Virus genome (UHGV): UHGV-1790783
Source: a virus
Length of the DNA: 30,347 bases
Direction: 5' to 3' (one strand)
Each line of letters begins with the position of its first letter. The first letter of the stretch is position 1. The position numbers were made by a program, and so were the translations under genes. The notes beneath the pieces are model-generated. The model had not been told where the DNA came from. It worked only from the letters and a program-made list of their open reading frames with translations, and ran no database searches. Positions 3,488 to 28,955 of this stretch are shown here, piece by piece.

Positions 3488-3569
3488 AAACCTCTTTCCT
3501 TCGTGCCTTTTGTATGGTAATTGGCTATTATAGTAAGTAAGTACTTATACAATAGATTGTATCAGAATT
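3488..3569. promoter_or_regulatory. Divergent intergenic control region between helicase (leftward) and ParB-like operon (rightward)
   Basis: 82-bp gap between divergently oriented genes. Contains TAGTAAGTAAGTACTTATAC (3531..3550) with the perfect 10-bp palindrome TAAGTACTTA, and a perfect TATAAT on the minus strand (plus 3527..3532) suitably placed for the helicase. -35 elements are weak. Confidence 0.5.
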
Positions 3570-4250
3570 ATGGATGTGAAAATTACGATTCTGCAGGTGG
3601 AAGTCGCGAACCTGCGTCCGAATCCCTGGAATACCAACTCCGTTGGGGCGCAAAACTTCGAAAAACTGAAAGGCTCTATCGAAAAATTGGGCTTTTTTAA
3701 GCCAATTCTGGCGCGGGAGTTGGACGGGGGCATTTTTGAGATCCTCGGTGGTGAACACCGCTGGCGTGCCGCGATGGAGCAGGGCATTTCAACGGTTCCC
3801 GTCATCTCCGTGGGCAAAATTAACGACCTGGTGGCCAAACAGATGTCCCTCGTCGACAACGAGCGCTACGGCGAAGACGATCAGGTCGCTTTGCAGCGCT
3901 TAATCGAAGAAATCCAGTCTGAAATCGACTACCGGTTGTCCGATATCGCCCCGTATGACGACGAAATGGCGGCAACACTCGCCAAAGCGTCCGTTATCGA
4001 TCTTGAAGCGCTGGAAGCGCTCTCCCGTGGCGATGACGAGCCGGTCGATGAGGACAAACGCGAGAAAACCGAGCGAGTCGGCGCTGAACACCAGACGATG
4101 CGCTTCAAGGTGACGTTTGATGCGTCAGATCGGGTCGCCGACACCATCAAAACCATCATCAAAGAGCAGGGAATCAATACCGGTAACGAAATGGAGAACG
4201 CCGGGGAAGCCCTGGTGTGGCTGGTCGACTACTACAAGGAGCGTATGTAA
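3570..4250 (+). CDS. ParB/sulfiredoxin-like nuclease-domain protein (paralogue 1)
   Basis: ORF track 226 aa. ParB N-terminal motif ILGGEHRWRAA preceded by LRPNPWN. Stop overlaps the next start (TAATG). Confidence 0.8.
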   Translation: MDVKITILQVEVANLRPNPWNTNSVGAQNFEKLKGSIEKLGFFKPILARELDGGIFEILGGEHRWRAAMEQGISTVPVISVGKINDLVAKQMSLVDNERYGEDDQVALQRLIEEIQSEIDYRLSDIAPYDDEMAATLAKASVIDLEALEALSRGDDEPVDEDKREKTERVGAEHQTMRFKVTFDASDRVADTIKTIIKEQGINTGNEMENAGEALVWLVDYYKERM

Positions 4251-4918
4251 TGACCAAAAACTTTGAAATCGTCTATCGAAACCCGGCAGAACTCATCCCG
4301 TATGAGATGAACGCCAAAAAACATGACGAACAGCAGATCCGCGATCTGGCGGCCGCCATCAAAAAGCGCGGTTTTGACCAGCCGATCACGGTCGACAAGC
4401 ACGACGTCATCATTACTGGCCACGGTCGTCGCGAGGCGGCTCTTCTGGCTGGTCTGGAGCGTGTGCCGGTCATTGTTCGCGACGATCTGAGCGAAGAAGA
4501 AGTGAAGGCTAAGCGTCTGGAAGACAACCGCCTGGCCAGTATTGACTACGACGCCATCAAATTGCAGCAGGAACTGGAATCCCTGGTGCTGGGCGACGTC
4601 GAGGTCTTCGGTTTTGAAGAGCGCGAGCTGAACGTGCTTGTCGGCAGCATGACCGAAGAGATGGAAACCGGCTCTCTGGTGCTCGATCTGGGCGAAGAGA
4701 CGGAGCGCCAGAAGGAAGAGCACACCGAGATCAGTCGCGAAGTGGCCTCTGAAGAAGTCCGCGTCATCGACGTATTGGGCTTTAAAACGCTCCCTGCTGG
4801 CTCTGCCATTGTGGTTGGGGATTTGCTTGCCCACATGGAAGAAATCACGGGAGAGAGCGGGGTAGACGCTTTCGTGGCGTATGCGGAGAAAGTTTCTTCT
4901 GGGGAGCTGGCCGCATGA
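4250..4918 (+). CDS. ParB/sulfiredoxin-like nuclease-domain protein (paralogue 2) with acidic C-terminal half
   Basis: In-frame ATG at 4250 inside track ORF 4217..4918. ParB-type motif IITGHGRREAA. Stop overlaps the next gene's ATG (ATGA). Confidence 0.8.
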   Translation: MTKNFEIVYRNPAELIPYEMNAKKHDEQQIRDLAAAIKKRGFDQPITVDKHDVIITGHGRREAALLAGLERVPVIVRDDLSEEEVKAKRLEDNRLASIDYDAIKLQQELESLVLGDVEVFGFEERELNVLVGSMTEEMETGSLVLDLGEETERQKEEHTEISREVASEEVRVIDVLGFKTLPAGSAIVVGDLLAHMEEITGESGVDAFVAYAEKVSSGELAA

Positions 4919-5553
4919 GCAAATACACCATCAACGTATCGTTTCAGACCCGCGTGAACAAAACCACGCGCACGCTGGAGATTGCCGAATCGTTCGGTCT
5001 TGGCCTGGACGAAAAAGAGTGGACGCTTTACGACAATCTGGAGCTGGAAGTGAAGCAGGGCGATGTGGTGTACATCACCGGCCAATCCGGTTCCGGTAAA
5101 TCCGTTGTGCTGCGCGAGCTGCAACGCCAGATGAAGGATGAAGGGCTTTCTGTAGCCTCCATCGATGACTTTGCCTTCGACAATGAGGTTAACGTCATTG
5201 ACCAGCTGGGCAAAACCACCAGCGAAGCGCTGGGGCTGCTGTCTATGGCCGGATTGAATGACGCCTATCTCTTTGTGCGTAAGCCATCCGAGATGTCTGA
5301 CGGCCAGAAATACCGTCTCAAGATCGCCAAGCTGATCGAGTCCGGCGCGAAAGTCTGGGCTGCCGACGAATTTGGCGCTGTTCTCGACCGTGTAACCGCC
5401 CAGGTTGTGGCGTCGAACCTCCAGCGTGCCGCCCGTAAGGTTGGTGCGACGGTAATGGTGGCGACGACCCACGAAGACCTGAAGAACGCGCTGCGCCCGG
5501 ATATGCAGATCACCAAGCACTACAAAGAACGCGTGAAGGTGGAATATGCCTGA
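4915..5553 (+). CDS. Stand-alone ABC-type ATPase (single nucleotide-binding domain)
   Basis: ORF track 212 aa. Walker A GQSGSGKS, Q-loop-like IDQLG, ABC signature-like SDGQKYR, Walker B VWAADEFG, H-loop-like ATTHED. No transmembrane partner in the operon. Confidence 0.75.
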   Translation: MSKYTINVSFQTRVNKTTRTLEIAESFGLGLDEKEWTLYDNLELEVKQGDVVYITGQSGSGKSVVLRELQRQMKDEGLSVASIDDFAFDNEVNVIDQLGKTTSEALGLLSMAGLNDAYLFVRKPSEMSDGQKYRLKIAKLIESGAKVWAADEFGAVLDRVTAQVVASNLQRAARKVGATVMVATTHEDLKNALRPDMQITKHYKERVKVEYA

Positions 5554-5800
5554 TTTGAAGATCGTAGAGCTGAAGCCATCGAAAGAGACTGACAACAACA
5601 ACGTTGAAGTCATCCGCCTGCTGGAAGAAGCACTCCAGTACGCAAGAGAAGGCAAAAGTCAGAGCCTGGCTCTGCTGATGATCGACAACGACGGCAATGT
5701 TATGGATTGCTGGCATAACGGTGGGCGTCCATACGTCATGGTTGGGGCGATGGAATCGCTTCGCCTGGACTTCATCAATGCCAATATCGAGCGTAGGTGA
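5546..5800 (+). CDS. Small hypothetical protein (84 aa)
   Basis: ORF track 84 aa, ATG overlaps the ATPase stop by 8 nt; no recognisable motif. Supported mainly by operon context. Confidence 0.45.
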   Translation: MPDLKIVELKPSKETDNNNVEVIRLLEEALQYAREGKSQSLALLMIDNDGNVMDCWHNGGRPYVMVGAMESLRLDFINANIERR

Positions 5801-5805
5801 TCGAC

Positions 5806-6696
5806 ATGACAGGCATCATCATCAAACGCTACCGCCCGGAAGAGTTCCCGCGTCATCTGGACTTTCTGGAGCGTATGACCGTTACCAAAGGCACGGTTGA
5901 AGACTGGCACGCGCTGAAGTCGCTGCACTACAAGACGGATGGTAAGCCGTTCGCGCCAACGTATTATCGCTGCGAACTGGACGACCGGCTGGTGGGCGTC
6001 GTGGTTATGGCTTACCCGAAACTGCTGCTGGCGCCTCGCCATCGCATGTTTCCTAAGCTGAAGCCAACCACCAATACCACCGTGGCCAACCAGTATTGGG
6101 GCCGGTACGTGAACAACAACTTTGCCGTGATCAGCCGTTCCGTTGTTGACACTCAGTACCGCGGTGTCGGCGTCTCCTATCGAATGATTAACCTGGTTAG
6201 CAGGATGCACGACCGGCCAATCATCGAGATCCAGTCGTCGATGAGCAAATACAACCCGTTCGCCATGAAAGCAGGGTTCCAGTTCATCCGTCCGGAGCGT
6301 CCGAAGAGCTATGAGAGTGCGTTGCGCGTCTTCCAGCGTCATTTCCGTTCTGACCCTGGCGACAACGAAGCGATCGTCAAAGAGCTGTTCGCCATGAGTG
6401 AGTCTCGCCGTCGTCGTGCGCTGCGTGATCTGGTCGCTGACTACCACAAGAACAGTTCCCTGGCCAAAGCCGGGCGTAATCGTGGCACGACGATTCAGGA
6501 CATTGCCGACAGCCTGGTGGACGAGGCCAGCACCGTGAAGCTGCTCAAGGACATTCACAACCTGAGCTTCACGTCTCCGCTGTATGGCGTGTACCGAAAC
6601 CCGGACTTTGGTCGTCAGCTGCCGGACACGCTGCCACTGCTGGCATTCGACAAACAGCCTTTGAATAAACCTCTTGAAATTGCATTACCGGCATAA
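5806..6696 (+). CDS. GNAT-like acyltransferase-fold protein with ~130-aa C-terminal extension
   Basis: ATG at 5806 (AGGTGA SD 8 nt upstream) within track ORF 5797..6696. Segment FAVISRSVVDTQYRGVGVSYRMINLV matches GNAT motif A (R/Q-x-x-G-x-G/A after a hydrophobic strand). Motif-level inference only. Confidence 0.55.
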   Translation: MTGIIIKRYRPEEFPRHLDFLERMTVTKGTVEDWHALKSLHYKTDGKPFAPTYYRCELDDRLVGVVVMAYPKLLLAPRHRMFPKLKPTTNTTVANQYWGRYVNNNFAVISRSVVDTQYRGVGVSYRMINLVSRMHDRPIIEIQSSMSKYNPFAMKAGFQFIRPERPKSYESALRVFQRHFRSDPGDNEAIVKELFAMSESRRRRALRDLVADYHKNSSLAKAGRNRGTTIQDIADSLVDEASTVKLLKDIHNLSFTSPLYGVYRNPDFGRQLPDTLPLLAFDKQPLNKPLEIALPA

Positions 6697-6705
6697 GGAT
6701 TTGCC

Positions 6706-6972
6706 ATGACGTTGACCGACAAACAAAAAGACATCATCAAAACCATCAATTTAGGCCATGAGCGTGGGCATCTGCTCGATCTGGACGAGCTGCTTGAAGT
6801 GCTGCCGTACAAAACGACCAAACAGAGTATGCAGTTCTCTATCCGCGCACTGGTGAAAAAGGGGCTGGTGGAGAAAGGAATGTGCCGCCAGCGCGGTGAT
6901 TCCGGCTACCACCGTCGCACGCTGGGACTGACCACGTTAGGTCGTGCCAGAGCCAAATTACTGGTGATGTAA
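6706..6972 (+). CDS. Small basic protein, putative winged-helix DNA-binding regulator
   Basis: ORF track 88 aa, SD TAAGGA upstream. Lys/Arg-rich with a helix-turn-helix-like segment (TTKQSMQFSIRALVKKGLVEK). Low-specificity inference. Confidence 0.45.
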   Translation: MTLTDKQKDIIKTINLGHERGHLLDLDELLEVLPYKTTKQSMQFSIRALVKKGLVEKGMCRQRGDSGYHRRTLGLTTLGRARAKLLVM

Positions 6973-6997
6973 GTCGGTCTGGGAGCCAGTTTGAGAG

Positions 6998-7048
6998 CCT
7001 GCTTCCGTATATATAAATAGTGACTTATTAAATATATACGGAGGCAGG
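6998..7048. repeat. Large imperfect inverted repeat (17-bp arms, 17-nt AT-rich loop) between the accessory operon and terS
   Basis: Seen in sequence: CCTGCTTCCGTATATAT ... ATATATACGGAGGCAGG, one mismatch that is a G-U pair in RNA. No adjacent T-tract, so not a classic terminator. Confidence 0.7.
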
Positions 7049-7163
7049 TTCTGAATACTCCCCAGCCCGGTTTTAAACACCCAGAAAACAAATTGGTTAG
7101 GCACTGAATTAAACAAGTTGTTTAGGAGCGCAAGGATGCGCTCTGAGTGTTTTAGAGGGATCT

Positions 7164-7805
7164 ATGACTGTAGAAAAAGACGAGAGCAAAACTCGCCTGA
7201 CACCAGCTGAGTGGGCAGAAGCCGAAGCGAAGTGGACTTCCGGCGAATACACACTCTCCAGGCTGGAGGAAGAGTACGGCATTCGTCGTGAAACGCTCTC
7301 CAGACATTTCAAAAAGCGTGGATTAGAGAAAGGCGCGGACTCCGTTGGGAAGATGGTGCGCGAGTCGCTCAAATCCGACGCAGAGCTGCGTGCGAAGGCG
7401 CGTGCAGAGAAAATCGAAGAGCGCCGGACTCGTTACGACGATTGGGCGTTCGCACTCGGTCGTATGGTGATGCATGAGGTGGCCACAGCCAAGAAGGACG
7501 GCAGGCCACTGGCAGCCATCGAAGATGACCTGAAGAGTCTCCAGCGTGCCAGCGGCACACTCGCTAAGTGCTTCGAAATATCGTCGAAAGCGCTCGGTAT
7601 GGATCGCGTGGAGAACGAGGACGACGAAATCCCGAACCTGGTATTTGGCGAACTTACGCCTTCCCAGGTGGCGCAGCTGCGTAAGGAAGATGATGAGCCG
7701 GATCTGATTGATGACGATCTGCTTGAGTCACTCGAAGAGGAAGCACTGAGCGAAGCTGAGGGCGATTCTGAAGCGTCTGGTGATGAAAGTGATGGGAGCG
7801 TCTGA
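7164..7805 (+). CDS. terS: Terminase small subunit (putative)
   Basis: ORF track 213 aa, immediately upstream of and coupled to the large terminase; HTH-like N-terminus, highly acidic C-terminus; SD AGAGGGA. Call by position and composition. Confidence 0.65.
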   Translation: MTVEKDESKTRLTPAEWAEAEAKWTSGEYTLSRLEEEYGIRRETLSRHFKKRGLEKGADSVGKMVRESLKSDAELRAKARAEKIEERRTRYDDWAFALGRMVMHEVATAKKDGRPLAAIEDDLKSLQRASGTLAKCFEISSKALGMDRVENEDDEIPNLVFGELTPSQVAQLRKEDDEPDLIDDDLLESLEEEALSEAEGDSEASGDESDGSV

Positions 7806-7807
7806 CT

Positions 7808-9064
7808 ATGGCCATCCCGTCGTCTCTGAGTCTCGTACAGCTGCATTCTGGGCAGATGCAAGTCTTCCAGTCGCCACATCGTTTCAAAGTGGTGTGTGCG
7901 GGTCGACGCTGGGGTAAATCCCGGTTGTCGATCTCCACCATCATCCGCGCGGCAGCCAAAGAGAAGAAGCAACGTGTCTGGTACGTCGCACCGACTTACC
8001 AGATGGCTCGCCAGATCTTGTGGGATGACCTGCAGGAAGTTCTGCCGCGCAAATGGGTTCGTAAGAAAAACGACACCACGATGACCATCGTGCTGAAGAA
8101 CGGCTCTGAAATCGCGCTGAAAGGTGCGGATAAGCCCGATACGCTTCGTGGTGTGGCACTGCACTTTGTGGTGCTCGATGAATTTCAGGATATGAAGCCT
8201 GACACCTGGTACAAGGTACTGCGTCCGACACTGTCCTCCACCCGTGGCGGTGCGCTGATCATCGGTACGCCAAAAGGCTTCTCCGAGTTCCACAAGCTGT
8301 GGACTATCGGTCAGAACAAAGATTTGCAACGCAAGGGGCAGTGGAAGAGCTGGCAGTTCGTTACGGCCGATTCTCCGTTCGTACCGAGCGCGGAAATCGA
8401 AGCAGCGAAGAACGATATGGACCCTAAATCGTTCGCACAGGAATACCTGGCCAGCTTCGAAAACATGTCCGGACGCGTTTACTACCCGTTCGACCGCAAT
8501 GTGCATGTGAAGCCACTCCAGTTCAATCCGAAACTGCCGATCTGGGTTGGTCAGGACTTCAACATCGACCCTATGTCATCGGTCATCCTGCAGCCGCAGC
8601 CAAATGGCGAGTTGTGGGCCGTGGACGAGGTTGTGCTGTTCTCTTCCAACACGGCTGAAGTGTGTGATGAGCTGGAGCGCCGTTTCTGGCGCTGGAAGTC
8701 TCAGGTCACTATCTTCCCTGACCCGGCAGGTGCGTATCGCCAGCACGCACGCGGCGAATCGGACGTCGATATCTTCAAGGAAAAAGGTTTCCTTCGAGTC
8801 GATTATCCGAAGAAGCACCCGCCGATCGCAGACCGTGTTAACGCAGTGAACCGCATGTTGATGAGTGCCTCGGGCGAAACCCGGTTGTACATCGATCCGA
8901 AGTGCAAACACCTCATCGACTCGCTGGAGAAGGTGATCTACAAGCCAGGCTCACGCGATATGGATAAGACTGGCGGCATCGAACACAGTGCGGATGCGTT
9001 GGGTTATCCGGTTCATCGTAGGTATCCGGTTAAAAATCGTGTTATTCTTGGTGGATCTAGATAG
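7808..9064 (+). CDS. terL: Terminase large subunit (ATPase + nuclease)
   Basis: ORF track 418 aa. Walker A VVCAGRRWGKS, Walker B HFVVLDEF, C-terminal acidic nuclease-type segment VGQDFNIDP. Confidence 0.9.
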   Translation: MAIPSSLSLVQLHSGQMQVFQSPHRFKVVCAGRRWGKSRLSISTIIRAAAKEKKQRVWYVAPTYQMARQILWDDLQEVLPRKWVRKKNDTTMTIVLKNGSEIALKGADKPDTLRGVALHFVVLDEFQDMKPDTWYKVLRPTLSSTRGGALIIGTPKGFSEFHKLWTIGQNKDLQRKGQWKSWQFVTADSPFVPSAEIEAAKNDMDPKSFAQEYLASFENMSGRVYYPFDRNVHVKPLQFNPKLPIWVGQDFNIDPMSSVILQPQPNGELWAVDEVVLFSSNTAEVCDELERRFWRWKSQVTIFPDPAGAYRQHARGESDVDIFKEKGFLRVDYPKKHPPIADRVNAVNRMLMSASGETRLYIDPKCKHLIDSLEKVIYKPGSRDMDKTGGIEHSADALGYPVHRRYPVKNRVILGGSR

Positions 9065-9078
9065 GTAAGTGCTTACCT
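9063..9078 (+). promoter_or_regulatory. Short palindrome/hairpin AGGTAAG-TG-CTTACCT in the terL-portal spacer (variant of the recurring TAAGTA motif)
   Basis: Seen in sequence; overlaps the terL stop codon and precedes the portal SD. Function unknown. Confidence 0.35.
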
Positions 9079-9097
9079 AAGCGGAAAGGAAAATCAA

Positions 9098-10672
9098 ATG
9101 GAATTGACTGACAAGCAAATCAAAGACCTTGTGGCACGACGCCACCCTGAATATGAGAAGAAAAAAGAACATTGGGACTTCCTCGCCAGCACCTACGCTG
9201 GCGGGCGTGCCTGGTTCAACGACAATATCTTCCGTTACTTCAAAGAGGGCGATCAGGAGTTCAAAGAGCGCCTGGAACGCGCTTATCGCTTCAACCATAC
9301 GCGCGAAGTGGTAAACCTCATCAACAAATACCTCTTCAAAGAGGTCATTCACCGCAACACTGATGAAGCACCGGAGCAGATCCGCAATTTCTGGAAGCGA
9401 GCCACGCGCCAGAACGCCTCCATCGATGCGTTTATGGCGGCTATCGATCTGCAATCATCCATTTATGGCCGTATCTGGGTTGTCGTGGATAGCACGATGA
9501 ACGTCGATGTTGAGTCTGTTGCAGACGAGAAGAAAAATGATGCGCGTGCCTACGCTTACTGGATTTCGCCGCAGCAGCTGCTTGATGTTGCCTGGGATGA
9601 AGACGGCAATATGTTGTGGGCGCTGATTGTTGAAATCGCGCGCGACGACGAAGATCCGTTCACTTCAACCGGGCAGGAATACCAGCGTTACCGTCTGTGG
9701 ACGCAAAACGAGTGGTATCTGTTCCGTGAAGAAGTGAAGAAGGGTTCCGGAAATAGCGGTCGCCGTCAGGCCAAAGTCGTTCTGGAGGATAGCGGCCAGC
9801 ATAATCTGGGCGTGGTGCCGGTGTTCCCGGTGGATTGCATTGGTGAAAGCGAGTCTCCGTATTTTAGCCCGTCGTTGATTGACGATATTGCCTATCTTGA
9901 TCGCGCCGTGGCCAACTACCTGTCGAACCTTGACGCGATTATTCAGGATCAGACATTCAGCCAGTTAGCGATTCCGGTTCAGTCCCTGCTGCCGGGCGAT
10001 GAAAACCACACCAAAGTGCTCGAAATGGGGACAAAACGTGTCTTCACCTTCGATTCTGAGAGCGGTAATCAGCCATTCTATCTGTCTCCAGACCCGAAAC
10101 AGGCTCAGATGATCATCACCACGATTAAGACGGTGATTAATGAGATCTACCATTCCGTTGGTGTGGCTGGTGAGCGAACCAAGCAGGATAACGCGCAGGG
10201 TATCGACAACTCTTCGGGGGCAGCGAAGATGTACGACTTCCAACGTATTAACAGTCTGCTGGTGACAAAAGCAGAGCGCCTCGAAAGGGCAGAACGCCAA
10301 ATGATGGAGTTGGCTGCGAAATGGATGGGCATCGAATTGGATGAAGACCACTCTCTGATCGCTTACCCGGAGAGTTTCGATATTCGTGGTCTGACTGACG
10401 AATTTGCCGTCGCTGAGAAATTGTCGCTGTTACAGGCGCCTGATTCTGTACGTCGTCATCAGATGGAAATGCTCATAGAAAAGATCTTCCCGAATATTTC
10501 CGAAGCGATGCAAAAGGAATTTAAAAAAGATCTCTTGAAATTTCCTCTAAAAAATGCTCCTGGCGCCCTTGAAAATAAGTCAGTACTTACTTATGATCGA
10601 GATACAGTCCAAGAAAGCGGACGAGATCAACCCCGAGGGAATGGGGACTCATCTACTCAAGAGACCGAGTGA
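9098..10672 (+). CDS. Portal protein (putative)
   Basis: ORF track 524 aa, directly after terL and before the scaffold/capsid genes; SD AAAGGA. Assigned by size and conserved gene order. Confidence 0.75.
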   Translation: MELTDKQIKDLVARRHPEYEKKKEHWDFLASTYAGGRAWFNDNIFRYFKEGDQEFKERLERAYRFNHTREVVNLINKYLFKEVIHRNTDEAPEQIRNFWKRATRQNASIDAFMAAIDLQSSIYGRIWVVVDSTMNVDVESVADEKKNDARAYAYWISPQQLLDVAWDEDGNMLWALIVEIARDDEDPFTSTGQEYQRYRLWTQNEWYLFREEVKKGSGNSGRRQAKVVLEDSGQHNLGVVPVFPVDCIGESESPYFSPSLIDDIAYLDRAVANYLSNLDAIIQDQTFSQLAIPVQSLLPGDENHTKVLEMGTKRVFTFDSESGNQPFYLSPDPKQAQMIITTIKTVINEIYHSVGVAGERTKQDNAQGIDNSSGAAKMYDFQRINSLLVTKAERLERAERQMMELAAKWMGIELDEDHSLIAYPESFDIRGLTDEFAVAEKLSLLQAPDSVRRHQMEMLIEKIFPNISEAMQKEFKKDLLKFPLKNAPGALENKSVLTYDRDTVQESGRDQPRGNGDSSTQETE

Positions 10673-10694
10673 TAAGTAACGAAAAGGTATTTCT

Positions 10695-11591
10695 ATGAAT
10701 CTGTGGCAAATGCTTATGGCCCGTCGTGGCCTGATGGATGTAGCCGAAGCGCATGAGCGCGGCGGCGCTGGTGGCGGTGCTCCTGCTGGAGACAATGAGC
10801 AGAGCATTCAAGACCCAGGCAAACAGGGCGAGCAAAAAGAGCAACCGAAGGGTGACGACGATGAGTATGCCGGTATGACTCAGGAAGAGTTGCTGGCAGA
10901 ACTGCGTAAGTCTAAGAAAGCCGGTGCTGATCTGTTGAAAGAGAACATGAAGCGCAAGGAGAAAGAGCGCACATTGGCCGATCAGCTGGCTCAGTACGGT
11001 GATATTGACCCGACGCGTGCTCGTCAGCTTCTCGAAGCTGAACAAGCCGCAGAAACCGCACGTCGGGAGGCGGAGCAGGCTGAACTGGAACGTCGTGGTG
11101 AGTTCGATGCTGTGAAAAAGCAGATGATCGAAGCACACCAGACTGAACTGGCACAGCGCGACGAACGCTACTCCGCTCTGGAGAGCGAGAACGCCGCACT
11201 GAAGGCTCAACTGGTCGAAATGACTGTTGGTGTTTCCTTCAGCAGTTCTGCTTTCCTGCGTGACAAAGTTCTGATGACTCCGGCTAAGGCACGCGTTATC
11301 TACGGCTCTCATTTCGAAGTGGGTGAAGACGGTAGTGTTGTGGGCTTTGATAAGCCAGCCGGTCAGAAAGAACGTGCAGTTCTGGTTGACGGTGAAGGCA
11401 AGCCGTTACCGTTCGAATCCGCGATTGAGCGCATTCTGCGTGCAGATCCGGAAGCTGACGCACTGTTGCGTAGCGAAGCCAAGCAGGGTGCTGGTTCCAA
11501 TAGCAAACCGACCCACAAAGTAAGCCAGCCGAAGAGCAAGTCGACTATGGATAAGTTGACCTCCGGTCTGGGAAAAATCGGACTCAAGTAA
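10695..11591 (+). CDS. Scaffolding-like protein (putative)
   Basis: ORF track 298 aa; Gly/Ala-rich N-terminus, long charged helical (coiled-coil-like) middle, located between portal and major capsid gene. No protease motif recognised. Confidence 0.55.
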   Translation: MNLWQMLMARRGLMDVAEAHERGGAGGGAPAGDNEQSIQDPGKQGEQKEQPKGDDDEYAGMTQEELLAELRKSKKAGADLLKENMKRKEKERTLADQLAQYGDIDPTRARQLLEAEQAAETARREAEQAELERRGEFDAVKKQMIEAHQTELAQRDERYSALESENAALKAQLVEMTVGVSFSSSAFLRDKVLMTPAKARVIYGSHFEVGEDGSVVGFDKPAGQKERAVLVDGEGKPLPFESAIERILRADPEADALLRSEAKQGAGSNSKPTHKVSQPKSKSTMDKLTSGLGKIGLK

Positions 11592-11617
11592 CATCTTAAA
11601 TCATAGGGAAATGAAAG

Positions 11618-12493
11618 ATGCCATTACTGCGTGATGAAGCTGAAAAGCTGTCTAATAACGAACTTGAGCAGGGTGTGATCGAGACCATCATCGATCGCGA
11701 TGACCTGTTCGCTATTCTGCCTTTCATGAAGATTAATTCTAAGGCATACCTTTACAACCGCGAAGCTACCCTGAGCGAAGCTACCTTCATTGATGTGAAC
11801 GACACCATCACTGAAGGCGCAGCAACCTTCAGCGAACACGTTGCGAAGCTACGTATCCTGGCAGGCGACGTAGACGTCGACAAATTCCTGGCGACCACTA
11901 TGTCCGACACCAACAACCAGCTGGCAATCCAGGTTCGTCAGAAGGTGAAAGGTCTGGCTCGCGCATTCCGCCGCAACCTGATTCTGGGCGACTCCAGCAC
12001 CAACACCAAAGCGTTCGACGGTATTCCGAAACTGATGCACGACGATCAGAAGATCGATATCGAAGGCGCTTCCATGACCTTCTCCATGTTCGACGAACTG
12101 GTCGACGCGGTGAAAGATCTGGGTGCGGACTGCATCATGATGCGCTCCGAGCATCTGCGTGCTTATCGCGCTCTGCTGCGTACCGTTAATATCGGCCCGT
12201 CCGAAATTATGATGGAAAACTTCGGTCGACCGATGTTGTGCCACAACGGTGTACCTTTCATCGTGAACGACTTCATCCCGACTGACGCGGGCAAAGCAAG
12301 CATCTACTGTCTGCACCTGTCCGAAGAGAACGGTGTGACCGGTCTGTATGGCGGTGAAAACGCTGGTATCGTTGTTGAGAACATCGGTACTGTTCAGAAC
12401 AAAGACGCAACCCGTACCCGCGTTAAGTGGTACTGCTCTCTGGCGAACAAGCACGACAAAGCTATCGCCGCGCTGACCAATGTAAAAATTTGA
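11618..12493 (+). CDS. Major capsid protein (putative)
   Basis: ORF track 291 aa, strong SD, follows the scaffold gene and is followed by a strong intrinsic terminator. Assigned by position and size. Confidence 0.65.
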   Translation: MPLLRDEAEKLSNNELEQGVIETIIDRDDLFAILPFMKINSKAYLYNREATLSEATFIDVNDTITEGAATFSEHVAKLRILAGDVDVDKFLATTMSDTNNQLAIQVRQKVKGLARAFRRNLILGDSSTNTKAFDGIPKLMHDDQKIDIEGASMTFSMFDELVDAVKDLGADCIMMRSEHLRAYRALLRTVNIGPSEIMMENFGRPMLCHNGVPFIVNDFIPTDAGKASIYCLHLSEENGVTGLYGGENAGIVVENIGTVQNKDATRTRVKWYCSLANKHDKAIAALTNVKI

Positions 12494-12528
12494 TCAGAAT
12501 AGTAGGTAAATAGTTATCTACTTAATAT

Positions 12529-12554
12529 GGGTGGGCTATACGCCCACCTTTTTT
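12529..12554 (+). terminator. Rho-independent terminator after the capsid gene
   Basis: Seen in sequence: GGTGGGC-TATAC-GCCCACC (7-bp GC-rich stem) followed by TTTTTT. Confidence 0.85.
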
Positions 12555-12567
12555 GTAGGAGTGATAA

Positions 12568-12996
12568 ATGCCAGAACAAAAGATGAAAATCATGGAGGAG
12601 ACGTTTGCGGATTTCACAGGGCATATGTGCCGTGCCGGATTCACCAACTCCGTCTCCAACGAGCCTCTGAGCGAGCGCCAGCAGAACCATCTTGCGGCTT
12701 GCTTCCGGACAGTTCCGTTCACGCAGTCTGTCAGCGTGGAGTCTGTTGCTCTGACTCCTGATTCTGTCTCTGTTGAGAAGGGGAAGTCAGTCAAATTGCG
12801 AGTTGATGTGCAACCGTCAAACGCAACCAATCAAAAAGTCACCTGGACTTCTCAAAATAGCGACAAAGCGACCGTGGATCAGAACGGTAACGTAGTTGGC
12901 GTAGCCGTTGGTACGGCAACCATTGAAGTGGCTTCACAGGATGGCAGTCACAAAGCGACTGCGACCGTTGAAGTGACCGCAGCACCGGCTGCGTAA
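12568..12996 (+). CDS. Ig-like (Big_2-type) domain protein, probable capsid decoration/accessory protein
   Basis: ORF track 142 aa, SD TAGGAGTG. C-terminal ~80 aa (VTWTSQNSDKATVDQNGNVVGVAVGTATIEVASQDG...) resembles bacterial Ig-like group 2 domains and the C-terminus of the major tail protein in this window. Confidence 0.7.
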   Translation: MPEQKMKIMEETFADFTGHMCRAGFTNSVSNEPLSERQQNHLAACFRTVPFTQSVSVESVALTPDSVSVEKGKSVKLRVDVQPSNATNQKVTWTSQNSDKATVDQNGNVVGVAVGTATIEVASQDGSHKATATVEVTAAPAA

Positions 12997-13039
12997 CCAA
13001 CATATGGGCAGCATAGCTGTCCATTAAGTGAGAAGAAAA

Positions 13040-13474
13040 ATGAAACCAGCAAAAATTCGTTTATTGGAGCCTCAATTTTTGGGGTACACGGGGATTCTCT
13101 GCGGTATCAAGTTTGTAGACGGTATCTCAGTTGCTGAACTGCCATTCGTCGATCAGCAGCGGATTTGTGCTTCCATGCGTGCGACTACCGTTGAAGGTAA
13201 AAATGTATCTCCTTCTGCCGCGTACAGTAGCCGCAATAACTTGACTGCGGAAGACATTGTCGAGACGCCAGCCCCGGATATTGTGCCAATGAAACGTGGT
13301 GCGGCTGAAACAAAGCCCAAACCGGTACAGCGCTTTACTCGTGAAGAACTGGAGTCGATTGCGGACTGTGAAGGTATTGCGGGTCTTCGTCAGATCGGCA
13401 ACCAAATTGGCGTGAAAGCCAAAGGCATCGTTGAAATGATCGAGGGTATCCTGAAAGCACAGGGCGGTGAGTAA
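13040..13474 (+). CDS. Hypothetical head/neck-region protein
   Basis: In-frame ATG at 13040 within track ORF 13028..13474 (GTGAGAAG upstream). Stop overlaps next start (TAATG). Function unassigned. Confidence 0.5.
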   Translation: MKPAKIRLLEPQFLGYTGILCGIKFVDGISVAELPFVDQQRICASMRATTVEGKNVSPSAAYSSRNNLTAEDIVETPAPDIVPMKRGAAETKPKPVQRFTREELESIADCEGIAGLRQIGNQIGVKAKGIVEMIEGILKAQGGE

Positions 13475-14307
13475 TGGCACAGATCGACACGTACCGTAGC
13501 GGGGAAGCCGTTTCCCTGTCGTTTGCATTTAACGTTCTGGGTATTGAGTCGGCAACGTATACCGTCAGAGATGGCGCTGGTTCGATCATCGTTGATAACG
13601 AACCTCTCGATATTACTGAGGGGCAGATGTCCATTCCGGTTGTCGTGTCGGCCGAACACAACCTGCTTGCCGACAAAGAGCGCGATCTGCGTTACGTCCT
13701 CGTCAAAGCGGTGGCATCCGGTCTGACGCATGAAGAGCGCAAGATGTACGTTCTGCTAAATAGCTTCGAGCTGTCTATTCCAGGCCAGTCATTCGCAACG
13801 GTCGCAGACGCCCAGATGCAAGCCATCGACATGCTGAACGGCGACACTCTGTTGGCTGATGGTGACGGGCTGATGCGCAAACGTCTCATTGAGGCCACCA
13901 GACGCGTCAAAACGCTGCCGTTTTCAATCCGCAAAGTCCTTCGTATCGATTTCGATCGGTACGACCGTCCACAAAACATGCTGAACGTATATGACGTACC
14001 GTGGGGTGCTGACGGGGCATATCGTCACGATCTGATTGATTGGGAGAAGATGACGCAGGATAAATTCGACGAATTCCCTGACTACTTCAAACAGACATTA
14101 ATGCTGGCCGTGGTTAATGAAGCCTGCGAAATCGCTAACGGCAATGACGTAGCGGCAGCTCGCGAGGACGGCATCCTGTCTGAATCCATTGGTGAAACGA
14201 CAAATATGTACCGCACCGGCAAAGCGGCAAATTTACATGTGGCTCGCAGTACCTGGAGACTGCTGGTCAGCTACATCAACAACCGCATGATTGTTCGCCG
14301 TGCGTAA
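13474..14307 (+). CDS. Hypothetical structural protein (head-tail connector/adaptor region)
   Basis: ORF track 277 aa, coupled to the upstream gene; position between capsid and tail genes. No motif recognised. Confidence 0.5.
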   Translation: MAQIDTYRSGEAVSLSFAFNVLGIESATYTVRDGAGSIIVDNEPLDITEGQMSIPVVVSAEHNLLADKERDLRYVLVKAVASGLTHEERKMYVLLNSFELSIPGQSFATVADAQMQAIDMLNGDTLLADGDGLMRKRLIEATRRVKTLPFSIRKVLRIDFDRYDRPQNMLNVYDVPWGADGAYRHDLIDWEKMTQDKFDEFPDYFKQTLMLAVVNEACEIANGNDVAAAREDGILSESIGETTNMYRTGKAANLHVARSTWRLLVSYINNRMIVRRA

Positions 14308-14404
14308 CGCCAGTCGCATTATTTACTTCTGGTCGAAAGGCTCAAGACGCACAATCGCGCCTTCGCCTGGTAATGCGTGCGGATGCCAACCACAGGGAGA
14401 GTGC

Positions 14405-14749
14405 ATGAACATTTCATGGCAAGCAGAGATGGCGATTTACCGTCTGGGTTCGAAGAATGTCTACGGTGAAGTGCAATTGCAGTTCGTCAGGAAGACGAAC
14501 GTCGGTGTCGTTAAGTTTGAACAAAGTAATGAGAAGTCATCGGTACGTGCGGACAGCTCCGGCAGTCGCGGAAAAGCCAATATGGAATTGTTCGATGCCG
14601 TTCTGGTGGTCCCACTTGAGGCCGCAGTACAGCTTGATGACGTTCTCATTCTGGAGGGGCAAAAGCTGAAGGTATCCAGCGTGCATCGTCGCTGGGGACT
14701 GCGTGGGCGCCCTGGGCATCTGGAAGTAGGGGCAAACATATGGGTCTGA
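14405..14749 (+). CDS. Hypothetical head-tail joining protein
   Basis: ATG at 14405 with SD AGGGAGAG; the track ORF 14291..14749 starts at a non-ATG codon overlapping the previous gene, which I consider less likely. Confidence 0.45.
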   Translation: MNISWQAEMAIYRLGSKNVYGEVQLQFVRKTNVGVVKFEQSNEKSSVRADSSGSRGKANMELFDAVLVVPLEAAVQLDDVLILEGQKLKVSSVHRRWGLRGRPGHLEVGANIWV

Positions 14750-15213
14750 AGTACGACGCGCATCAGTTTAAGCGTGCTGGCGACAGGCTCAATAACAGCC
14801 AGAAAGCCTTTAAGCGTTATCTCATCCGTGACATGGAGAAGCTGGCGCGTCTGGTTGAGCGTCTGGCGCGGGCAATGGCTCCGCTGGAGACTGGCTCACT
14901 CGAAAGCGCGATCTTCGCGAGAGTGGTCAAAGAGGGTTATACCGGGCTGCGTATTGAGTTATCGGTATCCGGGGCCAAGCCACGCGAGGGGCATCCGGGC
15001 GTTGAGGTTGGCGATTATGCGGAGTACATGGAATTGGGTAAGTATCGTCTCGGCTATCTCTCTCGCATGAAGAGCGTCACCAACCCGCCAGTCGCTGGTG
15101 TGAAGCCACGAGTTGGGCCTTTGTTCCTTGAGAGAGCCGTACAGATCAGTGAGAAACAGTTCACTCAGACGATAGCTGAAGCGGCAAGGAAAGCAGGTTT
15201 TACGAGAGGTTGA
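14740..15213 (+). CDS. Hypothetical head-tail joining / tail completion protein
   Basis: ORF track 157 aa, ATG overlaps the upstream stop; SD GGAAGTAGGGG. Assigned by position only. Confidence 0.5.
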   Translation: MGLKYDAHQFKRAGDRLNNSQKAFKRYLIRDMEKLARLVERLARAMAPLETGSLESAIFARVVKEGYTGLRIELSVSGAKPREGHPGVEVGDYAEYMELGKYRLGYLSRMKSVTNPPVAGVKPRVGPLFLERAVQISEKQFTQTIAEAARKAGFTRG

Positions 15214-15214
15214 T

Positions 15215-15598
15215 GTGTTTATTGAAGCATTTGCGAGCCTGATGCAGAAGGCGAAGATCGGTACACTCGGCACTGACATCTTTTGTCACTACATGCCAGC
15301 CAATGTGAAGTCCGGTGTTCTGTTGGTTAATCCCAATACGGGGATCGCTATTGACCATGAGTTGAAAGGCTTTTATCACGACTCTTTTACCGTCATCGTG
15401 CGTAATGCGACGATCACAAAGGCGGTGGCGAAAGCCAATAAGATCATGGACATGTTTCCGGTCGAGGAAACCGTGTCAGATGGCGTTTACTTCCGGTTGG
15501 TACGACCAATGTCGATGCCGATAACTTATCCAAAAAACGAAGGCTCGTTGATTGAAGCGGGCATCCCGATTGAATTTGCGGGCTATTTGTTGAATTAA
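15215..15598 (+). CDS. Hypothetical tail component immediately upstream of the major tail protein (possible tail terminator)
   Basis: ORF track 127 aa with GTG start 2 nt after the upstream stop (GAGAGG SD). Role is positional inference. Confidence 0.45.
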   Translation: MFIEAFASLMQKAKIGTLGTDIFCHYMPANVKSGVLLVNPNTGIAIDHELKGFYHDSFTVIVRNATITKAVAKANKIMDMFPVEETVSDGVYFRLVRPMSMPITYPKNEGSLIEAGIPIEFAGYLLN

Positions 15599-15620
15599 CA
15601 AAATAAGTAAGTATATACTT
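15590..15620 (+). promoter_or_regulatory. Putative promoter for the major tail protein gene containing the ATAAGTAAGTA motif
   Basis: Seen in sequence: TTGAAT (15590..15595), 18-nt spacer containing ATAAGTAAG, then TATACT (15614..15619); contains the 12-bp palindrome AAGTATATACTT. Confidence 0.5.
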
Positions 15621-15672
15621 GCTATTGGCGCCATGAAGGTGCTGATTTAACGGAAAAAGGAGTTTTCCAACA

Positions 15673-16419: not shown

Positions 16420-16436
16420 TCGTGACGTGACTAAGC

Positions 16437-27200: not shown

Positions 27201-28840
27201 CAACTGTAGATAGCAGTTTGGCCACCATTGAAGAGATGAAAAAAACCGTGGCTGAAGTCGAGCACTCCAGTGCCGAAGTGACGACAAACATTGAGGCATT
27301 GGCTAAAACAAACATCGATTTAGCTTTGCGTCAGGATGAAGACCAGCACAAACAGATGGTGAGCAATGCCAGGATCGCCACAACTCAGAAGGCTTTTGCA
27401 GATGATATGTCCGCAATGGCTACGAAAATGGAAGAGATTAGAGCTGAAATAAATGAGGATATCAGAGCTTCAATCACTGAAGAGACTACGGCTCGTGTAG
27501 ATGCGGATAATGCTATTGGAAGCAGAATCACCAAACTTGAATCAAAGATTAACGATGACATTTCTGCCGCAATTGTGAGTGAACAAGAGGCGCGAGCCAG
27601 TGCCGATGAAGCACTTTCAAAAGAAGTCCTATCGTTACAAGCCAAAGTTGAAGGCGATATTAGTGCCGCTATATCTGAAGAAAAAAACGCCCGAGCAACT
27701 GCCGACGAATCTTTGGCACAACAGATAACTACATTGAAGAGTCAAACGGGCAAGGATATTAAGGCGGCTGTAGCTGAAGAGACGAAAGCCAGAACTGATG
27801 CTGATTCCGCTTTGGCTTCTAATATCACTAATCTACAGGCTCAAACGAGCAAAGATATTCATGCTGCGATTACATCTGAAGCGACTACGCGTACAAGCGC
27901 CGACAATGCACTAAGTGGGAGAATTGACACCTTAAAAGCATCAGTAGATGGAAATACAGCAACAATTCAACAACAGGCCACAGCTATTGCTGATACGAAC
28001 AAGAAGGTATCAACAGCCTGGACGCTGAAAATGGAAACCTCCACCAGCGGAGGCCAAAAATATGTTGCCGGCATAGCGTTGGGCATCGACACAACAGGTC
28101 TATCGCAGTTTTTGGTGCAGGCAGATCGCTTTGGTTTGGTGAACTCCGTTAATGGGAAAATTACAACGCCATTCGTTATTGATGCCGGTGTGGCTTATAT
28201 GAACGGAGCTTATATCAAGAACGGCACCATTGATAACGCCAAAATAGGCAACTTCATTCAGTCCAACGATTACTCAAGCGGAATGACGGGGTGGCATATT
28301 AATAAAAACGGGAACTCAGAGTTTAACAATGTAACTGTTAGAGGCACCGTTTACGCAACGAATGGCAAATTCACAGGAGAAATACAGGCTACCAGCGGAA
28401 CATTCAGAGGCACGGTACAAGCAGATCACTTCGTAGGCGATGTCGCTAACATGTATGTGGGCAATGACTTCTCAGTTCGTAACAGCGGCACATATACAAT
28501 GACATATACAGACTCTTCTTCGTCTGCATTGCCCAAAAATATTTATGTGGCAATAAATGTATATACGGGGGGCGTCGGCCCTGTTGCAGCCCAATTTACC
28601 TGCAATGGAGTGACGAAGACCGCAGCCACTGGTAAGGGGGCTACATACAGAGACCCTGATCTTAATTCGACAAGTTCTACAGGCGTCGGTGGCACTCTTT
28701 ACGCTGCTTTTAACAATGTTACCTCAAGAACTGTTGCTGTTACGGTAAAAGTGACCAGTTCATCACAGACACATATTTATTCGCCCGTGATGCTAATCAG
28801 CCGTGGAAGTGGCGCATTTTCCATGTCGGGCATCAGTTAA
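24266..28840 (+). CDS. J: Central tail fibre / host specificity protein, lambda gpJ-like
   Basis: ATG at 24266 (SD AAGGA) within track ORF 24260..28840; ~1524 aa. Segments NYPNSALVGLKVNSEQFGS, FGCTSRGQAHRVGLWLL and the C-terminal FLVQADRFGL region match my recollection of lambda J. Contains tandem 33-aa repeats and a divergent C-terminal tip. Confidence 0.9.
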   Translation: MEQFKKKRLPLLIAGAGGKKSSSSSRTPVEADDTVNSRAMASILDLLGEGVIGGLVDGAKSIFIDDLPILNEDGSANYSGITWDFRDGSQDQTPMAGFDFVETPKSINIQLKKTHDVTVSIDNDEADRVRLILKFPSLRSVDKKSGDTNGTTVKYKFQIANGDGTFADVVAEGEKDVEIALTAKKTGVYYRSYELKLPKPGRAYKVRVIRLTDDSKTQYLYNDTWVDSIGEIVDTPMNYPNSALVGLKVNSEQFGSTMPSRSYLVRGIKIRVPSNYNEYTNTYVGVWDGTFKLLSSSNPAWILFDLLTNARYGLGQYVSESMIDLGQLYQIGRYCDEEVDDGFGGKEKRFAINTQITSRQDAYRLIQDIAGAFRGMVFWAGGMVNIMQDSPSDPVMMFTNSNVKDGLFTYKGSARKDRPSVALVTYNNKEDGYKQNIEYVEDQDAMRRYGERKTEVVAFGCTSRGQAHRVGLWLLYTARMESDVITFTAGLDASFLMPGETVLIQNKYRAGKRNSGRIVAFTKNSVTLDAPVSLAKGGCFIRILNQEGKIVERDVLETGENITKVTFSKALSSAETPVLNGVWTITEPDLEPMRVRIVNIAQGETSGSFDITAVENNPSKYEAIDNGATLIPQNTTVLDPTYSKPSNLQITEGTYLSSPGNLSVKLTATWEGKSPEYWISWRRSDANNVSNWQSARVTEEQYEIVNVAENGRYDFQLYAVSFNGKKTEIISTVYKVQGTMTPPDAPTALTAVGDYRNVILNWVNPDSIDLDHINVYASRTNNLDTAKLIAEAASTTFTHAGLGDSETWFYWVRAANKRGMLSQPNSNLGTEAMTKDVLSFLTGKITSSELGQELLEEIDTKASQEAVDAINKQMEESLKSLDDKFTETDQRIEEAQNVLRTEVSNTVSKVEEALKEVENSNAALIQLKETVSEQDKVVAGAVEAANAALDNSSALVAEEREARVEGDLANAKEIEAMKSTVDSSLATIEEMKKTVAEVEHSSAEVTTNIEALAKTNIDLALRQDEDQHKQMVSNARIATTQKAFADDMSAMATKMEEIRAEINEDIRASITEETTARVDADNAIGSRITKLESKINDDISAAIVSEQEARASADEALSKEVLSLQAKVEGDISAAISEEKNARATADESLAQQITTLKSQTGKDIKAAVAEETKARTDADSALASNITNLQAQTSKDIHAAITSEATTRTSADNALSGRIDTLKASVDGNTATIQQQATAIADTNKKVSTAWTLKMETSTSGGQKYVAGIALGIDTTGLSQFLVQADRFGLVNSVNGKITTPFVIDAGVAYMNGAYIKNGTIDNAKIGNFIQSNDYSSGMTGWHINKNGNSEFNNVTVRGTVYATNGKFTGEIQATSGTFRGTVQADHFVGDVANMYVGNDFSVRNSGTYTMTYTDSSSSALPKNIYVAINVYTGGVGPVAAQFTCNGVTKTAATGKGATYRDPDLNSTSSTGVGGTLYAAFNNVTSRTVAVTVKVTSSSQTHIYSPVMLISRGSGAFSMSGIS
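27458..27952 (+). repeat. Five tandem 99-bp (33-aa) coiled-coil-type repeats inside the J-like gene
   Basis: Seen in translation: DIRASITEETTARVDADNAIGSRITKLESKIND / DISAAIVSEQEARASADEALSKEVLSLQAKVEG / DISAAISEEKNARATADESLAQQITTLKSQTGK / DIKAAVAEETKARTDADSALASNITNLQAQTSK / DIHAAITSEATTRTSADNALSGRIDTLKASVDG. Nucleotide copies are diverged. Confidence 0.75.
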
Positions 28841-28897
28841 TTGATAGGAATAATGAGCAGCAATGTATATAGCGTGTTTTCTTAGTGCAAAAGGATT

Positions 28898-28928
28898 TTG
28901 TATCATTGATAATAAGTAAGTATATACC
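28898..28928 (+). promoter_or_regulatory. Putative sigma70-like promoter for the tail fibre gene, containing the ATAAGTAAGTA motif
   Basis: Seen in sequence: TTGTAT (28898..28903), 17-nt spacer containing ATAAGTAAG, TATATA (28921..28926). Confidence 0.5.
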
Positions 28929-28933
28929 TATTT

Positions 28934-28955
28934 GTGTGGGCAAGGACGCCCACAC
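28934..28955 (+). promoter_or_regulatory. GC-rich hairpin in the tail-fibre 5' leader
   Basis: Seen in sequence: GTGTGGGC-AAGGAC-GCCCACAC (8-bp stem), followed by the SD AAGGAG, not by a T-tract. Stem sequence resembles the capsid terminator stem. Confidence 0.55.

Follow-up and report, generated by a model that had tools for sequence, protein, structure and literature searches.

What is the short AT-rich element that recurs between genes in the virus genome UHGV-1790783, standing at the head of one transcription unit after another? The stretch analysed here (the window; 30,347 bp) is a portion of an SSU5-like phage-plasmid, of the type represented by SSU5, pHCM2, and pMT1. Where it overlaps the beginning of the SSU5 record (SSU5 position 1 being window position 7031), it shares 97.6% identity with that Salmonella phage; identity is 98.2% with an E. 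coli plasmid and about 92% with Yersinia pestis pMT1. Plasmid records similar to the window number 825, Y. pestis pMT1 plasmids among them, and pHCM2 of S. Typhi has been assigned to this group in published work. The original prediction, made from the window sequence, was that the element marks either a phage-specific promoter class or a common operator. The answer favoured here, with some reserve, is that it serves as the shared operator of a regulator that the phage-plasmid itself encodes and that would govern essentially the whole lytic programme.

The sequence ATAAGTAAGTAY forms the left half of a 20-bp inverted repeat (the palindrome; ATARGTAAGT-ACTTACYTAT). Allowing two or fewer mismatches, this half matches the window 11 times where 1.95 matches are expected, a number reached by none of 100 shuffles. 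The full palindrome is present in seven copies, designated sites A to G (Table 1). All of the sites originally predicted are present, within 2 nt of the positions first given, although the copy at 12502-12521 is degenerate. The short perfect palindromes reported at the same time also were found: TAAGTACTTA at 3538, AAGTATATACTT at 15609, and GTATATAC at 15611 and 28920. Six of the seven copies are intergenic, just as had been claimed; the exception (10575-10594) lies in the portal open reading frame, within the last 100 nt of the gene.

The complete SSU5 genome (103,299 bp; 88% coding, 12% non-coding) was used for a whole-genome scan, which the original prediction had named as the analysis that could overturn it. 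The motif withstood that scan. Twenty-eight positions lie within five mismatches of the palindrome, against 0.07 expected, and these collapse to about 26 sites (fewer than two would be expected), spread evenly at roughly one per 4 kb. Only one full copy is inside a gene (again the portal gene), despite the high coding density. Shuffling intergenic sequence only gives 0.29 expected core matches, compared with 14 observed. The motif is real and strongly non-random. Its most frequent form is ATAAGTAAGT-ACTTACTTAT, with outer blocks ATARGTA and TACYTAT. The motif strings were absent from the relevant papers in a literature search, which also found no description of this motif, or of lysis-lysogeny control, in SSU5-like phage-plasmids.

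Placement relative to genes is consistent in kind, if not in distance. For half of the SSU5 sites the downstream start codon is no more than 47 nt away, and the full range runs from 2 nt to more than 900 nt. Genes headed by these sites include those for SSB, RecA, ligase, NrdA, ThyX, methylases, and holin, in addition to head and tail genes. The motif therefore is not a late-gene feature: it precedes early-type genes as well as head and tail genes, and beyond the window it heads replication and nucleotide-metabolism genes rather than the structural region alone. Within the window, site E precedes the major tail gene with its immunoglobulin-like (Ig) domain (ATG 15673); site F precedes the tail L gene (ATG 22180; ribosome-binding site AAGGAAG); and site G follows a J-like tail gene (stop 28840) and precedes the tail-fibre gene (ATG 28976).

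Close relatives retain the sites. Those of phage Cyrano (about 82% identical) coincide in place with the SSU5 sites, and counterparts also are found in pMT1 and in E. coli and Klebsiella plasmids; nucleotide identity across this set is 75-98%. When five genomes were aligned over four orthologous intergenic regions, 53% of the columns within the motif proved invariant, against 38% of the remaining non-coding columns (Fisher p = 0.025). Site F is the best-conserved stretch of its intergenic region (16 of 23 columns invariant in the five-genome alignment), and two Klebsiella relatives, pMT1, and one E. coli plasmid all conserve site A. In some of the pMT1, E. coli, and Klebsiella plasmids, a site that is degenerate in the window is a perfect palindrome; for example, the ortholog of site D in Klebsiella pKp_SB611_2 is ATAGGTAAGTACTTACCTAT, a perfect palindrome. 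Site C, the copy in the portal gene, differs from the consensus once only, with C at position 10581 in place of the consensus A, which in the reading frame of 9098-10672 would create an in-frame TAA. SSU5, one E. coli plasmid, and one Klebsiella relative share its GTCAGT variant. Because the C avoids a stop codon within portal, the site seems to have been kept despite the coding constraint.

A palindrome can act in DNA or, as a hairpin, in RNA. Among the SSU5 sites, information content is alike in both halves. Arm positions compatible with Watson-Crick pairing number 182, against 180.6 +/- 4.2 after column shuffling, so there is no covariation. Many copies form just four to six of the ten possible arm pairs, and the RNA hairpin of the palindrome is weak (-1.6 to -6.3 kcal/mol). 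Sequence rather than pairing therefore is under selection, as is to be expected of a DNA site for a symmetric or dimeric protein.

More distant relatives reveal a further property. Portal homologues with 55-73% identity lead to syntenic loci in Morganella, Xenorhabdus, Ralstonia, and Halomonas, and all four of these loci carry palindromes at junctions matching those of the window: in the helicase/ParB divergent region (the junction of site A), between terminase and portal, before the scaffold-like gene, and before tail genes, among others. The sequences of these palindromes, and the spacing of their half-sites, are specific to the clade (Table 1). Sites E and G of the window are of the Morganella/Xenorhabdus type, and TATCAT following the palindrome recurs in the Ralstonia and Halomonas relatives. 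The Ralstonia element resides in a 1.7-Mb contig, and the feature therefore is not tied to plasmid life. Position is kept while sequence and spacing drift by clade, which points to an element-encoded regulator co-evolving with its operator. Thus, the operator half of the original prediction is well supported: a symmetric 20-bp site in about 26 copies, almost all of them intergenic and heading gene blocks, without covariation between its arms, and with clade-specific sequence at conserved positions.

How might such an operator work? Most likely, the 20-bp inverted repeat would be bound by a protein of the phage-plasmid's own, acting as one dimer or as two. One copy would head almost every rightward lytic unit: replication and recombination, nucleotide metabolism, head, tail, and lysis. 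The operator would occupy the place of the promoter -35 element and spacer (some copies carry a -10-like TATCAT along their 3' edge), and often would be wedged between the preceding stop codon and a terminator hairpin. Because the operator heads nearly all units, one regulator could switch about 26 promoters together.

Whether that switch would turn the lytic units off or on is a close call, with repression in the plasmid-prophage state only slightly preferred over activation. Some of the geometry is that expected for a repressor: the palindrome fills the spacer of the best promoters, site A is located between two divergent -10 hexamers, and early-type and late-type genes are treated alike. 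The original prediction had placed the motif, at two sites, within the spacer of a plausible sigma-70 promoter, and it is seen in such a setting with TTGAAA-17-TATGAT (10569-10597), TTGAAT-18-TATACT (15590-15619), and TGGATA-17-TATCAT (22103-22131). The first of these, whose 17-bp spacer is filled by site C upstream of a DUF6651 scaffold-like gene (ATG 10695), is the top sigma-70-like match in window positions 1-16000; the second is overlapped by site E. The palindrome also lies in the promoter spacer at SSU5 55688 (TTGAAA-17-TATCAT) and in Ralstonia (TTGTCA-17-TATCAT).

Terminators form part of the arrangement. At sites D, E, F, and G a stable GC hairpin begins 1-7 nt downstream, followed in two of the four cases by a T-run; elsewhere in SSU5, a terminator precedes the site. 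Behind the major capsid gene, elements of the SSU5 clade, Ralstonia, and Halomonas all keep the order of stop codon, palindrome, intrinsic terminator, and next gene, with differing palindrome sequences (Table 1). This suggests that operator and terminator act jointly.

Table 1. Coordinates and sequences of the palindromic sites and associated features (window positions unless another record is named).
Feature	Position	Strand	Sequence and context
Site A	3533..3552	.	GTAAGTAAGTACTTATACAA; 82-bp divergent region, helicase gene on one side (minus, start 3487), first ParB_N gene on the other (ATG 3570)
-10-like hexamers flanking site A	3526-3531; 3548-3553	both	ATTATA (TATAAT on minus strand); TACAAT
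Site B	9061..9080	.	ATAGGTAAGTGCTTACCTAA; overlaps terminase stop 9062-9064; ends 17 nt before portal ATG 9098
Site C	10575..10594	.	ATAAGTCAGTACTTACTTAT; sole in-gene copy, 3' end of portal open reading frame 9098-10672
Site D	12502..12521	.	GTAGGTAAATAGTTATCTAC; degenerate; 9 nt past major capsid stop (12493), 7 nt before terminator hairpin
Intrinsic terminator hairpin with T-run	12529..12549	+	Directly after site D; RNA fold -15.4 kcal/mol, z = -2.6
Site E	15603..15622	.	ATAAGTAAGTATATACTTGC; outer blocks retained, centre GTAT-ATAC; 4 nt past upstream stop (15598)
GC-rich hairpin without T-run	15624..15646	+	1 nt past site E; folded stretch -13.9 kcal/mol, z = -3.1
Site F	22106..22131	.	ATAAGTAAGTACTAATTTAC then TATCAT (22126-22131); 20-bp repeat 22106-22125
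Intrinsic terminator	22135..22157	+	10-bp stem plus TTTTTATTT; 3 nt past TATCAT of site F; -15.2 kcal/mol, z = -3.7
Site G	28912..28931	.	ATAAGTAAGTATATACCTAT; zero mismatches to ATARGTA-N6-TACYTAT
GC-rich hairpin	28934..28955	+	2 nt past site G; -15.9 kcal/mol, z = -3.8
Post-capsid palindrome plus terminator	window 12502-12549; SSU5 5471-5530; L114 13664-13720; L116 13400-13450		
Candidate binder (lead only)	1647..1925	-	92 aa; directly downstream of helicase
P1 (L111) -22 boxes	2678-2696; 17251-17269; 20969-20987; 31212-31230; 38318-38336; 46608-46626		Resemble AAGTACTT
Palindrome, SSU5 clade (window)			ATARGTAAGT-ACTTACYTAT
Palindrome, Morganella and Xenorhabdus			ATARGTAW-N4-ATACYTAT
Palindrome, Ralstonia			ATAGTCA-N4-TGACTAT; 9 matches versus 0.11 expected; enteric form, 0 matches
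Palindrome, Halomonas			RTAAGTCA-N2-4-ACTTACTTAT

Which protein would bind? One candidate, offered as a lead, is the 92-residue protein encoded just beyond the helicase gene. A protein of 92-99 residues is located downstream of the helicase in every clade examined, with similar size and layout. It matches phrog_1466 (unassigned function), and by position it corresponds to CYRAN_117 of Cyrano, for which the Cyrano lysogen transcriptome records 12 times background (PMC9928086). Judged by eye, the sequence has a strand-helix-turn-helix pattern like that of Arc and Mnt, and the putative strand varies between clades (HCQVQLT, VTQFRAT, SVNATFK, and HTVVVNK). The AlphaFold2 monomer has an unstructured amino terminus followed by helices, at moderate confidence (mean predicted local distance difference test, or pLDDT, 69). 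Its standing as candidate regulator rests on position, the one published lysogen value, and the by-eye pattern. In the Morganella and Xenorhabdus loci (L113, 2930-2978; L115, 2990-3027), two or three direct copies of a half-site (ATACCT...), about 13-14 bp apart, occupy the short spacer between the helicase gene and the gene for the small candidate regulator, just upstream of the latter. This looks like an autoregulatory region.

Several observations weigh against an operator for an element-encoded repressor. First, no -35 element at a fixed distance is conserved across the SSU5 sites, whose left flank is merely A-rich. Most sites have no recognisable -35, which fits an activator better than a repressor. 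Second, the -10 signal does not favour the gene strand. About 40% of sites carry CAT as their right flank, giving TATCAT, and TATCAT occupies a fixed 3' position in about 8 of the 26 SSU5 sites; -10-like hexamers accompany 22 sites on the gene-less bottom strand versus 18 on the gene strand. Third, the site is upstream of the terminator in several units, which is awkward for a promoter unless the start lies inside the hairpin. (Transcripts starting about 7 nt past the -10-like hexamer would begin within the 5' arm of the hairpin; the hairpin then would halt incoming transcripts and not newly started ones.) Fourth, nothing significant was found for the 92-residue protein in Foldseek, Pfam (E up to 10), PDB sequence, or PDB profile searches. 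Finally, in the SSU5 clade the consensus equals the site of the host protein SlmA, a match absent from the original prediction, which makes a host protein a possible binder, either in place of an element-encoded one or in addition to it.

The first two of these points also bear on the other half of the original prediction, a promoter class, which was not established: there is no fixed -35, TATCAT is confined to a minority of sites, both strands are alike, and a convincing sigma-70 promoter accompanies only two or three copies. A sigma-70 scan of the window passed only the three promoters at 10569-10597, 15590-15619, and 22103-22131, and promoter-like sites over the whole window were not above shuffle expectation. 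The lack of a conserved -35, the equal occurrence of -10-like hexamers on both strands, and the few scan matches together led to the rejection of a general sigma-70 promoter class.

SlmA is a nucleoid-occlusion factor of the TetR family that antagonises FtsZ when bound to DNA. It binds GTGAGTACTCAC, in which G1, T2, A4, and G5 are needed, any purine is accepted at position 3, and any pyrimidine at position 6; changing G to A at core position 3 shifts the dissociation constant from 50 to 60 nM (PMC3020112). Chromatin immunoprecipitation yielded a 20-bp consensus for the SlmA-binding site (SBS), GTAA-GTGAGC-GCTCAC-TTAC (PMC4423959; PMC4117426), and the natural site SBS17, GTAA-GTAAAT-GGTCAC-TAAC, is bound with a dissociation constant of 63 nM as the SBS17-30mer (PMC4423959; PMC4117426 Tables S4 and S7). 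It is possible, although the chances are well short of even, that the palindromes are an SBS array for host SlmA, with about 26 sites per copy. SlmA then could repress the promoters it overlaps, could block division over the plasmid or, after replication, cell-wide, and could be titrated by that replication. Such an array could coexist with an element-encoded binder.

The resemblance is close. The phage consensus written in the same form, ATAA-GTAAGT-ACTTAC-TTAT, equals the SBS consensus at 14 of 20 positions, including all of the specificity positions. The remaining differences are at positions 1 and 20 and at positions tolerant of either purine or either pyrimidine, and the TAA and TTA flanks are shared. 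The strict core, GTRAGYRCTYAC, has three exact matches in SSU5 and 17 with one or no mismatch, where 0 and 2.55 are expected, and all 17 have flanks of the ATAR/YTAT type. By comparison, the first 50 kb of phage P1 have one core match at that threshold. In the window, there is one exact match (9065) and there are three within one mismatch; the exact match is in site B, whose central 12 bp are GTAAGTGCTTAC. Placement in a promoter spacer also is that of the synthetic Psbs::lacZ reporter repressed by SlmA, and an SBS between -35 and -10 turns SlmA into a repressor (PMC3573117). A tblastn search found no SlmA homologue encoded by the element.

Several features count against SlmA as the primary binder. 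Relatives in Morganella and Xenorhabdus retain the outer blocks and lose the SlmA-critical A and G (C and T in the other arm) of the core, even though the SlmA recognition helix is taken to be the same in these hosts, an assumption based on a statement in PMC3020112. Relatives in Ralstonia and Halomonas carry other palindromes at the same places. Within SSU5, there is less variation in the outer blocks (T6 in 26 of 26 sites, A7 in 24, A15 in 24) than at the critical bases (A8 in 21, G9 in 22, C12 in 17, T13 in 19), and position 7 is never G, which SlmA would accept. Window sites E and G violate the core rule in one half. Genomic distribution differs as well: the chromosome has 24-52 SBS in 4.6 Mb (PMC3573117), mostly in coding DNA and none in promoters, whereas SSU5 has about 26 in 103 kb, nearly all intergenic. 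No paper was found that links SlmA to SSU5, pHCM2, or pMT1.

The likeness is confined to the SSU5 clade, and recruitment of SlmA therefore is advanced as a hypothesis. SlmA probably is able to bind the best copies. A stronger proposal, rather unlikely but worth stating, is that in the Enterobacteriaceae/Yersinia clade (pHCM2, pMT1) the operator has been shaped into a high-affinity SlmA site, present about 26 times per 100-kb copy (a number similar to the 24-52 of the entire chromosome), that would recruit a host division regulator. SlmA then might act on the lytic promoters as a co-repressor that replication of the element titrates away, making a copy-number switch; and the element DNA might itself act as a division inhibitor, over the plasmid in the prophage state and cell-wide during lytic replication. 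With the published estimate of two dimers per site, and about 26 sites, the calculated demand is about 52 SlmA dimers per element copy, versus a published estimate of about 500 per nucleoid (PMC3573117). A multicopy SBS plasmid together with SlmA does block division (PMC3573117).

Activation is the other serious contender, again with less than even prospects. The sites may be an activator-dependent promoter class similar to the Lpa-dependent late promoters of phage P1, in which the palindrome would replace the -35 element and bring in RNA polymerase by way of an element-encoded activator, with TATCAT as the -10. The annotation of the P1 record describes the late promoter as an inverted repeat of 9 bp that a 4-bp gap separates from a -10 hexamer, and the inverted repeat is centred near -22 (PMC10695390). 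The P1 boxes, AAGTGACTT or AAGTTACTT, are near to the motif centre, AAGTACTT (Table 1). Most of the sites considered here likewise have no -35, and TATCAT is fixed in a subset of SSU5 sites and recurs in Ralstonia and Halomonas. Other evidence is unfavourable. No Lpa homologue was detected: tblastn of P1 Lpa versus SSU5, Cyrano, and the window gave a best E-value of 0.63. Early-type genes (SSB, RecA, ligase, NrdA, and ThyX) also are headed by the motif; the gene strand does not exceed the opposite strand in -10 signal; and the best-formed promoters already are near consensus in both -35 and -10.

Apart from this particular proposal, P1 offers the closest known arrangement: an enterobacterial phage-plasmid in which many units are each headed by a short, conserved, promoter-overlapping element that binds a protein. 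Its late promoters lack a -35 and combine a repeat near -22 with a -10, and the P1 box AAGTNACTT resembles the motif centre. P1, however, uses two elements (C1 operators for early genes and Lpa promoters for late genes), whereas a single palindrome here serves both kinds of gene. The P1 C1 operator is asymmetric and annotated as 17 bp, whereas the site here is 20 bp and two-fold symmetric.

Two other systems invite comparison. In plasmid RK2, the KorA/KorB regulon consists of one or two element-encoded regulators that bind a palindrome at many promoters replicon-wide, co-ordinating most genes. This is a functional analogue of the plasmid-wide regulon envisaged here, although there is no sequence relation and the RK2 operators are contiguous palindromes of 12-13 bp. 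Phage P22 Arc and Mnt, repressors of the ribbon-helix-helix type, use a symmetric operator of about 21 bp. The present site is similar in size and symmetry, and its two subsites, spaced by about 11-13 bp, could accommodate two dimers. The pattern of the 92-residue candidate is similar by eye, although Pfam, PDB-profile, and Foldseek searches did not assign it to the ribbon-helix-helix fold. The P22 proteins control one promoter region, as opposed to a genome-wide regulon.

A third, improbable explanation assigns the sites to two ParB-family proteins encoded immediately to the right of site A, with the palindromes acting as parS-like or KorB-operator-like sites in partition, long-range silencing, or packaging. 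ParB-family proteins such as Noc and KorB do bind dispersed palindromes. The two ParB_N proteins (3570-4250 and 4217-4918) adjoin site A and are conserved in the window, Morganella, Xenorhabdus, and Ralstonia; for Halomonas, the recorded match is for the first protein only. That first protein aligns with Spo0J over residues 7-155, beyond the amino-terminal domain. Both are possible binders. Their genes, however, lie in a rightward, late-looking block just upstream of terminase, and SSU5 has a separate ParA-type partition gene elsewhere. Between the half-sites lies a spacer that varies from 4 to 6 bp, whereas parS, NBS, and OB sites are contiguous, and no specific motif link to ParB-like proteins was found.

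The surrounding genes form two blocks. A minus-strand block contains an FljA-like gene, a lipoprotein gene, a small open reading frame, and the helicase gene. The rightward block encodes, in order, the two ParB_N proteins, ABC-type ATPases, terminase, portal, a scaffold-like protein, capsid, tail proteins, and the start of the tail fibre. The segment before terminase (3570-6700), with its ParB_N-domain proteins and ABC-type ATPases, is a conserved block whose layout is kept in all distant relatives examined, with the proviso for Halomonas given above.

Least probable by far is that the element works as RNA, its AU-rich hairpin being a processing site, a stabiliser, a part of a terminator, or a translational operator with the FljA-like protein as one candidate partner: the sequence is palindromic, in several copies a start codon follows at 2-18 nt or a terminator hairpin adjoins, and FljA acts post-transcriptionally (PMC2652032), but the arms lack compensatory changes, predicted stability is low, many copies form just four to six of ten pairs, the distance to the start codon varies widely, and the Morganella, Xenorhabdus, Ralstonia, and Halomonas loci list no PF03614 protein yet carry palindromes. 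An RNA hairpin or processing site was rejected for its absent covariation and weak folds. The FljA-like protein itself (633-1196, minus strand; phrog_1444) is a full-length homologue of the Salmonella phase-1 flagellin repressor (PF03614, E = 4e-96). The annotations of the pMT1, E. coli, and Klebsiella relatives show a gene of like size in the corresponding place, and a search of viral contigs with the protein returned close relatives only. It was dropped as a binder of the palindromes since it is unlisted in the four distant loci that retain them.

Other candidates were set aside. The 'putative repressor' of Cyrano, CYRAN_45, is not a regulator common to the family, because the integrase-bearing block that encodes it has no equivalent in the SSU5 annotation. 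None of the LexA, Fur, CRP, FNR, TyrR, NrdR, or DnaA boxes is known to fit the motif.

Two additional repeats in the window deserve mention. A near-perfect hairpin at 6991-7055, just upstream of a small terminase-like gene, has 24-nt arms, TTGAGAGCCTGCTTCCGTATATAT and ATATATACGGAGGCAGGTTCTGAA (-36.7 kcal/mol, z = -8.7), and an AT-rich loop that bears a loose likeness to the motif. SSU5 has three copies of this hairpin (near 33.47 kb, near 78.32 kb, and across the ends of the record, such that SSU5 position 1 is within the loop). It could be a strong bidirectional terminator, or could be related to packaging. Inside the tail-fibre gene, at 29512-30081, there are imperfect direct repeats (GCNGCNNAANNNTCNGANACNAANGC...) spaced at multiples of 42 nt, which probably encode a repetitive shaft segment rich in Ala, Ser, and Glu.

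An operator for an element-encoded regulator thus is the favoured account of the palindromes. The SSU5-like phage-plasmids are a very large family, and a single operator before about 26 units provides a handle on their control: it predicts promoters, defines a regulon, and can serve as bait for the regulator. If the SlmA match is functional, these phage-plasmids would be mobile elements that carry an array of nucleoid-occlusion sites; we know of no earlier example. Moreover, the combination of fixed position with clade-varying sequence makes the family a natural data set for the co-evolution of protein-DNA specificity.

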